From NCBI RefSeq assembly GCF_002854065.1, contig NZ_CP024147.1: 64,000 nt of DNA; one strand, given 5' to 3'. Below the pieces are notes generated by a model. That model did no database searches. It was not told the origin of the DNA and saw nothing but the letters and a program-made list of their open reading frames with translations. Below are positions 2,714-58,253 of this stretch, one piece after another (positions within the stretch are counted from its first letter, which is position 1; the number at the start of each line of letters is the position of its first letter). The DNA is from Escherichia coli (GTDB taxonomy: Bacteria > Pseudomonadota > Gammaproteobacteria > Enterobacterales > Enterobacteriaceae). Made by a program: the position numbers and the translations under genes.

Positions 2714-5650
<2,937 letters not shown>

Positions 5651-53961: not shown

Positions 53962-54214
53962 TTACGATGCCGGGCGTGGGTTGTTGGCGTCCGGCTTTAT
54001 ATCCAAATAACGCTTAGTTATTGATAATTAAGAGTAACTGCCGCCATTAAAATAGTGGGCACTGACGAGCACTCGTTGTGCTTTCTTTGTTTACCATCCC
54101 ATACTTATCCTCCTGAACATGTTCATGTGCCAAAATATCTTCTAATACTTTCGTGACGCTATCCGGTTTATGACATACACTGATGTAAGATTTTTACTTA
54201 CAGGCGGGCGTAAA

Positions 54215-54466
54215 ATGGCCAGAACGATGACGGTTGATCTCGGCGATGAGTTGCGTGAATTTATCGAGTCCTTAATTGAATCCGGCGACTATCGCACCCA
54301 AAGCGAAGTGATCCGTGAGTCACTGCGATTACTTCGAGAAAAGCAAGCAGAGTCTCGCCTGCAAGCGTTACGTGACATGCTCGCAGAAGGGTTGAGTAGT
54401 GGTGAAGCTCAGCCGTGGGAAAAGGACGCGTTCTTACAGAAGGTGAAAGCAGGGATAAGGAAATAA
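54215..54466 (+). CDS. parD: ParD-like ribbon-helix-helix antitoxin (type II toxin-antitoxin)
   Basis: MARTMTVDLGDELREFIESLIESGDYRTQSEVIRESLRLLRE matches the ParD (COG3609) pattern; stop is 1 nt before the toxin start. Confidence 0.8.
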   Translation: MARTMTVDLGDELREFIESLIESGDYRTQSEVIRESLRLLREKQAESRLQALRDMLAEGLSSGEAQPWEKDAFLQKVKAGIRK

Positions 54467-54467
54467 T

Positions 54468-54764
54468 GTGCGTATTATTAAACTCATGCCAAAAGCCAAT
54501 GAGGATTTAGAAGGCATCTGGTATTACAGCTATCACCATTTCGGCGAACCACAAGCCGACAGATATGTGGAACATCTTTCAGACGTTCTCCAGATTCTGA
54601 GTAACAATAATATAGGTACGCCCAGACCTGAATTAGGCGAAGGTATTTTTGTTCTTCCTTTTGAACGCCACGTCATTTATTTCCTGCAATCACCAGGGGA
54701 AATTATCGTCATTCGTATCCTTAACCAAAACCAGGACGCCACCAGACATTTACACTGGAGCTAA
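54468..54764 (+). CDS. parE: ParE/RelE-superfamily toxin (type II toxin-antitoxin)
   Basis: 98 aa from a GTG start (an ATG at 54486 is an alternative); C-terminal HVIYFLQSPGEIIVIRILNQNQD fits the ParE fold; lower GC than neighbouring core genes. Confidence 0.8.
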   Translation: MRIIKLMPKANEDLEGIWYYSYHHFGEPQADRYVEHLSDVLQILSNNNIGTPRPELGEGIFVLPFERHVIYFLQSPGEIIVIRILNQNQDATRHLHWS

Positions 54765-54866: not shown

Positions 54867-56228
54867 ATGTTTAAACCGGAACTCCTTTCCCCGGCGGGAA
54901 CGCTGAAAAATATGCGTTACGCTTTCGCTTATGGCGCAGATGCTGTTTATGCGGGCCAGCCGCGTTATTCCCTGCGTGTGCGCAACAACGAATTCAACCA
55001 CGAAAATCTTCAGCTCGGCATCAATGAAGCCCACGCGCTGGGGAAAAAGTTTTATGTCGTGGTCAACATTGCACCGCACAACGCCAAGCTGAAAACCTTT
55101 ATCCGTGACCTGAAACCGGTGGTGGAAATGGGGCCGGATGCGCTGATTATGTCCGATCCAGGGCTGATTATGCTGGTGCGTGAGCACTTCCCTGAAATGC
55201 CGATCCACCTCTCGGTGCAGGCTAACGCCGTAAACTGGGCGACGGTGAAATTCTGGCAGCAAATGGGCCTGACCCGCGTGATCCTCTCTCGCGAGCTGTC
55301 GCTGGAAGAGATTGAAGAGATCCGCAATCAGGTGCCGGATATGGAGATCGAGATCTTCGTTCACGGCGCACTGTGCATGGCCTACTCCGGTCGCTGCCTG
55401 CTCTCTGGCTATATCAACAAGCGCGACCCGAACCAGGGTACCTGCACCAACGCCTGCCGCTGGGAGTACAACGTCCAGGAAGGGAAAGAAGATGACGTTG
55501 GCAACATCGTACACAAGTACGAGCCGATTCCGGTGCAAAATGTTGAGCCGACGCTGGGTATCGGCGCACCAACCGACAAAGTGTTTATGATCGAAGAAGC
55601 CCAGCGTCCGGGCGAGTATATGACCGCGTTTGAAGATGAGCACGGCACTTACATCATGAACTCGAAAGATCTGCGCGCCATCGCCCATGTTGAACGCCTG
55701 ACCAAAATGGGCGTGCATTCGCTGAAAATCGAAGGTCGTACCAAATCTTTCTACTATTGTGCACGCACCGCACAGGTTTACCGCAAAGCTATCGATGACG
55801 CCGCTGCGGGAAAACCGTTCGATACCAGCCTGCTGGAAACTCTGGAAGGTCTGGCGCATCGTGGCTATACCGAAGGTTTCCTGCGTCGTCATACTCACGA
55901 CGATTATCAGAACTACGAATACGGTTATTCAGTTTCTGACCGCCAGCAGTTTGTTGGTGAGTTTACCGGTGAGCGCAAGGGGGACCTCGCGGCGGTAGCG
56001 GTGAAAAATAAATTCTCCGTTGGCGACAGCCTTGAGCTGATGACGCCGCAAGGCAACATTAACTTTACCCTTGAGCACATGGAAAACGCCAAAGGTGAAG
56101 CGATGCCGGTCGCACCAGGCGATGGTTATACTGTGTGGCTCCCGGTCCCGCAGGATCTTGAGCTAAATTACGCTCTCCTGATGCGTAATTTCTCTGGGGA
56201 AACCACGCGTAACCCACACGGTAAGTGA
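54867..56228 (+). CDS. yegQ: Peptidase U32-family protein YegQ
   Basis: 453 aa; MFKPELLSPAGTLKNMRYAFAYGADAVYAGQPRYSLR N-terminus typical of U32 collagenase-like proteins. Confidence 0.93.
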   Translation: MFKPELLSPAGTLKNMRYAFAYGADAVYAGQPRYSLRVRNNEFNHENLQLGINEAHALGKKFYVVVNIAPHNAKLKTFIRDLKPVVEMGPDALIMSDPGLIMLVREHFPEMPIHLSVQANAVNWATVKFWQQMGLTRVILSRELSLEEIEEIRNQVPDMEIEIFVHGALCMAYSGRCLLSGYINKRDPNQGTCTNACRWEYNVQEGKEDDVGNIVHKYEPIPVQNVEPTLGIGAPTDKVFMIEEAQRPGEYMTAFEDEHGTYIMNSKDLRAIAHVERLTKMGVHSLKIEGRTKSFYYCARTAQVYRKAIDDAAAGKPFDTSLLETLEGLAHRGYTEGFLRRHTHDDYQNYEYGYSVSDRQQFVGEFTGERKGDLAAVAVKNKFSVGDSLELMTPQGNINFTLEHMENAKGEAMPVAPGDGYTVWLPVPQDLELNYALLMRNFSGETTRNPHGK

Positions 56229-56263
56229 TTAATATCGATTATTTTTCCCGGATGGAAAATTCT

Positions 56264-56279
56264 TAGAAACCGATCACAT
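56264..56279 (+). promoter_or_regulatory. Class II CRP site and promoter of cyaR
   Basis: TTAGAaaccgaTCACA is an imperfect TGTGA-N6-TCACA site centred about 41.5 bp upstream of the cyaR 5' end; -10-like TATCAT at 56300-56305. Confidence 0.5.
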
Positions 56280-56312
56280 ACAGCTGCATTTATTAAGGTT
56301 ATCATCCGTTTC

Positions 56313-56399
56313 GCTGAAAAACATAACCCATAAAATGCTAGCTGTACCAGGAACCACCTCCTTAGCCTGTGTAATCTCCCTTACACGGGCTTATTTTTT
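56313..56399 (+). ncRNA. cyaR: CyaR (RyeE) Hfq-dependent small RNA
   Basis: GCTGAAAAACATAACCCATAAAATGCTAGCTGTACCAGGAACCACCTCCTTAGCCTGTGTAATCTCCCTTACACGGGCTTATTTTTT matches CyaR as I recall it, including the terminator hairpin (GCCTGTGTAA...TTACACGGGC) and U-tail. Confidence 0.85.
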
Positions 56400-56557
56400 A
56401 TGCATAAGCCCTATCCCTGGTCACCGTCTTCCATTGACCACATCGATAGAATCTCCCTTCATAGCACGATGCCTTTCACGTAACGGCATCGTGCTCGCAC
56501 AGGTTCCGGCTAAGCACAACCAGAACGCGCATGTTTGATGCTTACCAAAAAATATTC

Positions 56558-56875
56558 TCACTCTCCACATTTGAATGTCAGACGAGCGACGCCATGTAAT
56601 CCTGCACCTTCTGTCTTCAGGTCAACTATCTGCATTTTTTTGCCCTGAGTAACACAGAAATGGGCTGCATCATTTTTTACTATATTTTCTGCACCAGATA
56701 TTCTGCCCCTGGCTAAAGAAGCTTCGGCTTCGGTGTAGTATTGGTTATCGAGTTTACGCTGAATATTACTTTTATATGCAAGACCAAATTTACCGATACT
56801 TGTTTCATCATTATGCACAGCACAACCAGATATAAGAAAAATACTAATTAATGATATAGCAGCTATCTTTTTCAT
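56558..56875 (-). CDS. yegR: Small lipoprotein (YegR-like)
   Basis: Probable start MKKIAAISLISIFLISGC (signal peptide with lipobox); about 105 aa; name assigned from position between yegQ/cyaR and yegS. Confidence 0.7.
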   Translation of the reverse strand: MKKIAAISLISIFLISGCAVHNDETSIGKFGLAYKSNIQRKLDNQYYTEAEASLARGRISGAENIVKNDAAHFCVTQGKKMQIVDLKTEGAGLHGVARLTFKCGE

Positions 56876-57280
56876 CTCACCTTCCCCCATTAAATACCAA
56901 CGACACTCTCTAGTGTTTAAATATAATAATGGCATGATTATTATAATTGAATAGGATTATAATAAATGTTCTGTACAACATTTCCTACATAAGTAGGAAT
57001 TACGGACATTGAGGCCCTTCAGGGTAACTCCATGGGGGCTTTAATATATTATATTGAAGATGCCACTGTTTAGTTGAATATTAGGTATATGCTCTTTTTT
57101 GAAATTTATCGGTGGCAGCCGTTAGTATTCGCTGTCCCCATTGCAAGCTCCTGGTGGTAACCACTGAATCTTCCATACTTGAACTGACTTTTTATCCTCC
57201 GACTTTCATCCTGTTCTGACTCCACCTTTTGTTTTCTGCTCTACACTATCTACAGACCAATCATAAAGGCACATACGATC

Positions 57281-58180
57281 ATGGCAGAATTTCCCGCCAG
57301 CTTACTGATTCTTAATGGCAAAAGTACTGACAATCTACCCTTGCGCGAAGCAATTATGCTGTTGCGTGAGGAAGGAATGACGATCCATGTGCGGGTCACC
57401 TGGGAGAAAGGCGATGCCGCACGATATGTAGAGGAGGCCCGGAAGTTGGGTGTCGCAACGGTGATTGCCGGTGGTGGCGATGGCACCATTAATGAAGTTT
57501 CTACGGCGTTGATTCAGTGTGAGGGGGATGGCATACCCGCGCTGGGAATTTTGCCATTAGGAACCGCCAATGATTTTGCCACCAGTGTAGGGATTCCTGA
57601 GGCACTGGATAAGGCGCTGAAACTGGCAATTGCCGGTAACGCCATTGCGATAGATATGGCGCAGGTCAACAAACAAACCTGTTTTATTAATATGGCGACA
57701 GGCGGATTTGGGACGCGTATTACCACAGAAACGCCGGAAAAATTAAAAGCCGCGCTGGGTGGCGTCTCTTACATCATTCATGGCTTAATGCGCATGGATA
57801 CTCTGCAACCGGACCGTTGTGAAATCCGCGGTGAAAACTTTCACTGGCAAGGTGACGCCCTGGTCATTGGTATTGGTAACGGGCGTCAGGCCGGTGGCGG
57901 TCAGCAATTGTGTCCGAACGCATTAATTAACGATGGCTTGCTGCAACTGCGCATTTTTACCGGCGATGAAATTCTTCCGGCTCTCGTATCAACCTTAAAA
58001 TCTGACGAAGATAACCCGAATATTATCGAAGGCGCTTCGTCGTGGTTTGATATACAAGCCCCACACGAAATCACTTTTAATCTTGATGGCGAACCGTTGA
58101 GCGGACAAAACTTTCATATTGAAATACTTCCGGCGGCGTTGCGTTGTCGATTACCACCAGATTGTCCATTATTGCGTTAA
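57281..58180 (+). CDS. yegS: Lipid kinase YegS (diacylglycerol-kinase-like catalytic domain)
   Basis: 299 aa; GGDGT motif ([13 protein letters not shown]) of the DAGK_cat family. Confidence 0.93.
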
Positions 58181-58217
58181 TCAAACTATTCTCTCTTGAA
58201 CCAGGGAGAATCCGAAA

Positions 58218-58253
58218 TGCCGGATGCGGTGTAAATACCTTATCCGGCATACA
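58218..58253. repeat. REP (repetitive extragenic palindrome) between convergent yegS and gatR
   Basis: TGCCGGATGCGGTGTAAATACCTTATCCGGCATAC, the canonical enterobacterial REP unit. Confidence 0.75.

Follow-up and report, generated by a model that had tools for sequence, protein, structure and literature searches.

The DNA analysed here, referred to as the window, is a stretch of 64,000 nucleotides from Escherichia coli, and its queried part, around the small RNA gene cyaR, is 100% identical to E. coli strain SY3626. The genes follow one another in the order yegQ/trhP (plus strand, ending at 56228), cyaR (plus), yegR (minus) and yegS (plus, from 57281), and the features that lie among them are collected in Table 1. 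Elsewhere in the window, a ParD/ParE-type toxin-antitoxin pair (two 98-aa ORFs, 54170-54764) is situated between yegP and yegQ, with the same annotation in SY3626, and a REP-like palindrome (58214-58249) lies between yegS and a DeoR-type regulator, where its match to naRNA4, at 30 bits, stays below the gathering score of 59.5.

The cyaR gene, its control by CRP and its use as the attachment site of phage P2 are textbook knowledge. In the window, cyaR sits downstream of yegQ with an intrinsic terminator of its own at 56364-56399, and the annotated RNA of 87 nt corresponds to 56313-56399. The match to Rfam family RF00112 is full-length (1-85; 56311-56396) with 100.7 bits and an E value of 4.8e-20, the gathering score being 47. 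The terminator, a stem at 56364-56391 followed by a T-run, was the sole terminator-like site in a scan of 56150-57350, and the 3' end of cyaR in K-12 Term-seq data, at 2167199, is equivalent to 56398. Judged by the Rfam score and the terminator scan, gene and terminator are intact, as a preliminary description of this DNA had stated. That cyaR is CRP-dependent is established; at this locus, the CRP site is a candidate read from the sequence, with three of five consensus bases in its left half and five of five in its right half, and the promoter stretch that holds it is that of K-12 save for a single base at 56234. The preliminary description placed an imperfect class II site about 41.5 bp upstream of the gene. 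The class II-like placement near the -35 element stands, but the distance does not for the annotated start site (56313), from which the centre lies 42.5 bp upstream; 41.5 bp is obtained only if transcription starts at 56312.

Table 1. Features of the cyaR-yegS interval, in window coordinates.
Feature	Position	Strand	Basis or remarks
CRP-like site TTAGA-N6-TCACA	56263-56278	+	Read from sequence; overlaps the -35 of the cyaR promoter
Probable cyaR -10 hexamer TATCAT	56300-56305	+	Sequence; 8-13 bp upstream of the annotated +1 (56313)
cyaR (ryeE) sRNA gene	56313-56399	+	Rfam RF00112, terminator scan, K-12 Term-seq 3' end
P2 attB core (locI)	56373-56399	+	Identity to P2 attP; lysogen junctions
Relic of P2-type attP P arm	56400-56449	+	Core stretch 56417-56446, CTGGTCACCGTCTTCCATTGACCACATCGA
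Decamer AATCTCCCTT	56450-56459	+	Direct repeat; same letters as nt 1-10 of the att core
Orphan hairpin	56463-56495		11-bp perfect stem, 11-nt loop, no U-tract
Relic of 186-like cos-proximal right end	56505-56553	+	Aligns to the part of phage 186 that lies 60-108 nt inside cosR
yegR	56558-56875	-	Small lipoprotein gene, 105 aa, PF27694; ORF and RefSeq annotation of SY3626
Possible relic of P'-side sequence, CCATTGCAAGCTCCTGGTGGTAAC	57138-57161	+	18/24 identity to P2 (L003 571-594), at colinear distance from the core
Decayed second att core, AATCTTCCATACTTGAACTGACTTTTT	57167-57193	+	19/27 ungapped match to the core
yegS leader	57194-57280	+	Homology to yegR-less relatives

The attP core annotated in P2 is 27 nt long and matches the window at all 27 positions, with the identity continuing to 56400 to give 28/28 (AF063097 24355-24382). 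The core coincides with the 3' half of the cyaR terminator and the T-run and, because it forms this half of the terminator, integration of P2 rebuilds the sRNA gene. A 372-bp query from the locus was found in one place in 4565 of 5423 complete E. coli genomes; in lysogens, the query breaks exactly at its bases 145 and 171, which are 56373 and 56399, and int-P'-core-flank (attR) junctions were read directly in two of them (L138 and L225). The literature gives 'cyaR RNA' as the insertion site of P2-type prophages in E. coli W, B and K-12, with the K-12 element listed as 'ogr-D'' (Archer et al. 2011, PMC3032704). The site in the window thus shares with P2 locI the identical 27-nt core within the 3' half of the terminator, and differs from it in two respects: no current prophage occupies the core in this strain, and an orphan hairpin lies outside it.

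The spacer from the end of cyaR to the stop codon of yegR, put at about 160 bp in the preliminary description, measures 158 bp. Two small ORFs that run over it (67 aa on the plus strand and 49 aa on the minus strand) have no Pfam match and were taken as spurious. The same description saw no prophage remnant here, a statement that can no longer be maintained, since the spacer holds a P2-type P-arm relic and a 186-type cos-proximal relic. The stretch 56417-56446 aligns to P2 (L003 661-690), in which the annotated Int P-arm binding site occupies 663-690, with a score of 38 against 13.7 +/- 2.0 for shuffled sequences, none of 1000 of which reached it. The window has lost the greater part of the IHF site that separates core and P arm; strain 19KM1831 retains about 15 nt more of this region. 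P2-like lysogens of Citrobacter, Trabulsiella and Buttiauxella carry the same P arm after cyaR, and in all seven other E. coli haplotypes read at this place (7/7), the arm relic has been kept 18-47 bp from the core.

The cos-proximal relic, nearer to yegR, also scored 38 in its alignment to phage 186, against 18.1 +/- 2.3 for shuffles (0/500 reaching it). In a divergent locus, L041, the stretch equivalent to 56505-56553 is continuous with a recognisable cos site and with the beginning of the portal-gene terminator; against 186, z is 18.7. This locus, from E. coli SCPM-O-B-8794 (3480-3702), ends 240 nt after cyaR, with yegR outside it. It has no hairpin and carries a fuller P-arm/IHF relic in its place; its portal-gene terminator start and degenerate 186-like cos are joined to the sequence that adjoins the hairpin in the window.

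On the far side of yegR, the ungapped match that ends at 57193 is the best non-self match to the att core on both strands of the window (128 kb), the next best reaching 17 positions. Homology to two Escherichia lineages that have no yegR (L132 and L134) resumes at 57189, at this second core, and we read the element as the putative old attR, which would be the displaced original 3' end of cyaR. The possible P'-side trace ends 5 nt before it; in an open local-alignment shuffle test, this trace was not significant (120/1000). Upstream of the second core, tblastn matches to an integrase C-terminus were noise. No recognisable phage gene was found in 56400-57193 when Ogr, D and the Int C-terminus were compared, and only yegR is left, so the interval counts as a scar rather than as an annotated cryptic prophage. 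The relics succeed one another in the order and orientation of the P2/186 prophage map (core, P arm, cos-proximal end, cargo gene, P' trace, core), and the island has a GC content of 29-43% against 50-58% in yegQ and yegS.

A pattern scan for cyaR in one genome per species of the Enterobacterales yielded 120 loci. In 65 of them, yegS starts at most 420 nt from the cyaR terminator, without phage-arm sequence between the two, and neither yegR nor the hairpin was found in the fetched flanks of any (0/120). The yegS leader lies within 7 nt of the cyaR terminator in L132 and L134. Their yegR-less state could reflect precise excision or ancestral absence, and the segment would in either case be an integrated element. 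In E. albertii NBRC 107761 (L016, 4964-8300), an unrelated insert of about 3.3 kb, without yegR, lies between two copies of the att core, with a truncated P-arm relic coming first.

At this site, E. coli K-12 has a P2-type prophage in decay, the ogrK-yegZ (ogr-D') remnant. It is absent from the window, as the preliminary description had recognised, no ogr or D sequence being found anywhere in the 64 kb. Comparison with K-12 shows that the right border of the remnant is a partial core, TACACGGGCTTATTTTTT, beyond which follows the same relic-plus-hairpin sequence as in the window. The K-12 remnant lies to the left of the older scar, between it and cyaR. The two differ in age and content: the remnant is younger, with recognisable genes that are about 96-100% identical to P2, whereas the older scar has no phage genes and consists of site relics and cargo only.

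The gene yegR appears, from its sequence context, to be surviving cargo in the variable right-end slot of the old prophage. P2 and 186 carry a cargo ('moron') region at their right ends (old/tin in P2, tum-orf97 in 186), and yegR likewise lies between the cos-proximal and the int-side relics; like orf97 of 186, it is read towards cos, and it is AT-rich and foreign-looking. It differs from the cargo of these phages in that it occurs in no extant phage record save as host flank, and in that related yegR genes are also present at non-phage chromosomal loci in other genera. The YegR protein has been detected by proteomics (PMC9973271). Homologues are nearly confined to Escherichia. Distant ones (48-66% identity) were seen at unrelated loci, L008 (Enterobacter sp. 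BIDMC 29), L010 and L013, one of them between IS elements, and yegR itself therefore appears to be mobile.

Several further observations concern the surroundings of yegR. In many E. coli genomes and in L041, about 170 bp more separate the cos-like relic from the yegR stop codon (at about 56553/56554 of the window; L002 1830-2000). This segment, missing from the window and from K-12, holds an ORF of 41-51 aa on the yegR strand that has the appearance of a second lipoprotein gene of which only a decayed beginning is left; in another genus (L226-L229), yegR homologues are followed 4 nt later by a lipoprotein ORF of 108-110 aa. Upstream of yegR, where the GC content is 29-32%, AT-rich palindromes occupy 56922-56965 (with a 10-bp stem at 56938-56965) beside the best promoter-like matches.

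The hairpin between the two spacer relics is as originally described from the sequence, a perfect 11-bp stem without a U-tract. Its arms are AGCACGATGCC and GGCATCGTGCT and, read on the strand of yegR, its near edge comes 62 nt after the stop codon of that gene. It is the sole perfect 11-bp hairpin of the window, against an expectation of 0.2 in Markov-1 random sequence. Folding gave -21.3 kcal/mol on the plus strand (z -5.1) and -24.6 kcal/mol on the minus strand (z -5.8). No U-tract follows on either strand, the next bases being CGCACAGG (plus) and ATGAAGGG (minus), and the scan of 56150-57350 did not call the hairpin terminator-like. It resembles intrinsic terminators in being a perfect, GC-containing stem just downstream of a gene; it differs from them in the missing U-tract, the 11-nt loop and the want of a mapped 3' end in the Term-seq tables considered below. 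Because it has no U-tract, it is no canonical intrinsic terminator. A comparison with Rfam, at E values up to 1, assigned it to no family.

Of 5426 complete E. coli genomes, 5414 (99.8%) carry the hairpin, once per genome (median, one place), and the window has one copy. In 5408 of the 5414 carriers it is uninterrupted, and the one interrupted copy that was read, in strain 1912D004 (L139), has an IS3 within the right arm, at a position equivalent to about 56493. A pattern scan of IMG/VR returned 80 matches, 79 of which are host flank of cyaR-integrated prophages and one of which is unrelated; in a BLAST comparison with 50,697 phage records, the hairpin matched only host-flank records and chance hits, and no phage interior. 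The 46 nt that contain it (56450-56495) match nothing among the sequences compared, namely cos, the tQ and tW terminators and the 50,697 phage records, so that a phage origin of these 46 nt is suggested by their position only. As a candidate homologue of the P2/186 cos region, 56446-56495 was rejected, semi-global alignment to L041 and to the 186 cos giving z values of 0.5 and -0.6. Late genes and cos have been lost exactly where these 46 nt lie, and homology to L041 starts at the first base 3' of the stem, which suggests a deletion junction at this border of the hairpin (56495/56496).

The decamer that precedes the hairpin could represent an additional, truncated core copy, or it could match by chance. 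Compared over its full length, the 27-mer core matches at 56450 in 15 of 27 positions, owing to the first 10 nt only, and this is the best core-like match near the hairpin. Other haplotypes have AATCCTCCTT or AATCCCCCTT in place of the decamer. The first 10 nt of the core, which it matches, are also the loop of the CyaR terminator, and the complement of the decamer on the yegR strand, AAGGGAGAUU, resembles a Shine-Dalgarno sequence; pairing between it and that loop is conceivable in principle.

Variation within E. coli bears on whether the hairpin is under selection. Among eight sampled haplotypes, 8 of the 11 stem pairs are invariant, one C-G pair has become U-G and two are broken (A.C and C.A); compensatory changes were not seen in these eight haplotypes, which thus lend no covariation support. 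The identity band to which the doubly changed form belongs comprises 349 genomes. Nucleotide diversity is 0.04 in the stems, 0.045-0.055 in the flanking relic and 0.026 in yegR. The 11-bp stem is perfect in both major haplotypes, between which 6 of 59 neighbouring positions differ; the contrast could point to weak constraint, although the value is not significant (p about 0.15). The hairpin is no more conserved than the relic around it, and no selection on it is detectable. We take it most likely to be relic DNA, at most serving as a 3' stem-loop for the yegR mRNA.

One alternative is that selection maintains the hairpin as an RNA element in the yegR transcript, either a non-canonical terminator or a regulatory structure in the 3' untranslated region. 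Its stability on the yegR strand, its location 62 nt past the stop codon, its presence in nearly every E. coli genome and the perfect stem of both major haplotypes all speak for this, but the stem is neither followed by a U-tract nor called by the terminator scan, it varies as much as its flanks, and the changes it has undergone include pair-breaking C.A and A.C variants in sampled lineages (with 349 genomes in the doubly changed band) and no compensating ones. In many strains, moreover, the extra 170 bp come between yegR and hairpin, and yegR homologues elsewhere are served by unrelated canonical terminators. The idea that the hairpin travels with yegR was rejected, the distant homologues at other loci having such terminators, or a second gene, in its stead. 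In two of the three condition tables of the K-12 Term-seq study (Adams 2021), no 3' end is given from that of cyaR at 2167199 to 2171800, the next belonging to gatD, and the K-12 equivalent of the hairpin, at about 2167894-2167926, falls within this interval; weak expression of yegR could account for this. The TERMITe supplements have no entry for yegR or cyaR. On balance, we regard a selected RNA element as unlikely. Quite unlikely, too, is that the hairpin is the stem of a late-gene terminator of the old prophage, such as the portal-gene terminator tQ of P2 or tW of 186, whose T-run disappeared when a deletion joined the stem to the cos-proximal relic at 56495/56496. Such an event would account for a strong stem without a U-tract; the position between P arm and cos is that of tQ and tW, and the onset of L041 homology at the first base after the stem suggests a deletion junction. 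Against it, the sequence has no similarity to the tQ region of P2 or the tW region of 186, scoring below the shuffle mean, and the stem occurs in no extant phage or viral contig outside host flank.

The preliminary description had also offered the hairpin as a residual phage attachment core. The hairpin starts 64 bp past the P2 core, however, and is therefore not the att core: the true core is the one in the cyaR terminator, which all lysogen junctions examined have used, at 56373-56399. A role as a secondary core or as another recombinase site could draw on its 13-bp imperfect inverted arms with a 7-bp spacer, reminiscent of the core of a tyrosine recombinase, on the att-core-like decamer 3 nt before it and on the repeated P2-type integration that has shaped the region. 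Comparison with attachment sites of the P2 family, however, disclosed no similarity to attP or to any other phage att or cos sequence, and with 5408 of 5414 copies uninterrupted, the one insertion read is an IS3 in one arm and not an element flanked by the site; we consider this role highly improbable. Nor do we give more than minimal credence to a chance palindrome with neither history nor function. The lack of any homologue and of any sign of selection would suit it, but a perfect 11-bp stem is expected about 5e-4 times in a spacer of 158 bp (0.2 times per 64 kb), and the folding z values lie between -5 and -6.

We consider it probable that the locus consists of a CRP-activated cyaR with an unoccupied P2 locI in its terminator, followed from 56400 to 57193 by the scar of a P2/186-family prophage in which the hairpin is relic DNA. 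An old prophage of this family, once about 30 kb long, would have shrunk to about 0.8 kb, and its att core would have been kept functional because the core completes cyaR. Read from the left, the scar would comprise, in the order of the prophage map, the att core, the relic of the P-arm Int site and the 46 nt of unassigned origin with the hairpin; these would be followed by the cos-proximal right-end relic, yegR read towards cyaR, AT-rich DNA, the P'-side trace and the decayed second core. If the hairpin acts at all, it would do so on the yegR transcript as a stable 3' stem-loop. It follows the stop codon by 62 nt on the transcribed strand and forms a highly stable RNA structure, which points to a place at which exonucleolytic trimming of the yegR mRNA would stop after factor-dependent termination, and it would also separate the convergent cyaR and yegR units. 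The hairpin may equally have no activity whatever.

More far-reaching readings of the scar can be framed. The relic of the arm-type Int-binding site would make locI an extended, attL-like site and, possibly together with the hairpin, would contribute to the site preference of P2-family phages or to tandem integration and remnant formation; or the hairpin would have been domesticated as the structure that defines the 3' end of yegR. We hold such roles to be very unlikely. Already known are cyaR and its dependence on CRP, the location of the P2 core within the cyaR terminator, and the ogr-D' remnant of K-12. The older scar, the phage-site relics that flank yegR and the second core have, as far as we have checked (in sources other than the 1992 locI paper), not been annotated so far.

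These findings reveal no new mechanism and concern mostly known biology. The scar explains why the DNA after cyaR looks unusual, with a terminator-like hairpin that has no U-tract. The 'empty' P2 site of this strain is not virgin, and it illustrates cleanly how prophages decay in layers at the gene of an sRNA. Newer P2-type phages have been stacked on the cyaR side of the scar, among them the one that left the ogrK-yegZ remnant in K-12. Almost all strains sampled carry the uncharacterised lipoprotein gene yegR, for which the scar would provide an origin, as the last cargo of a decayed prophage.
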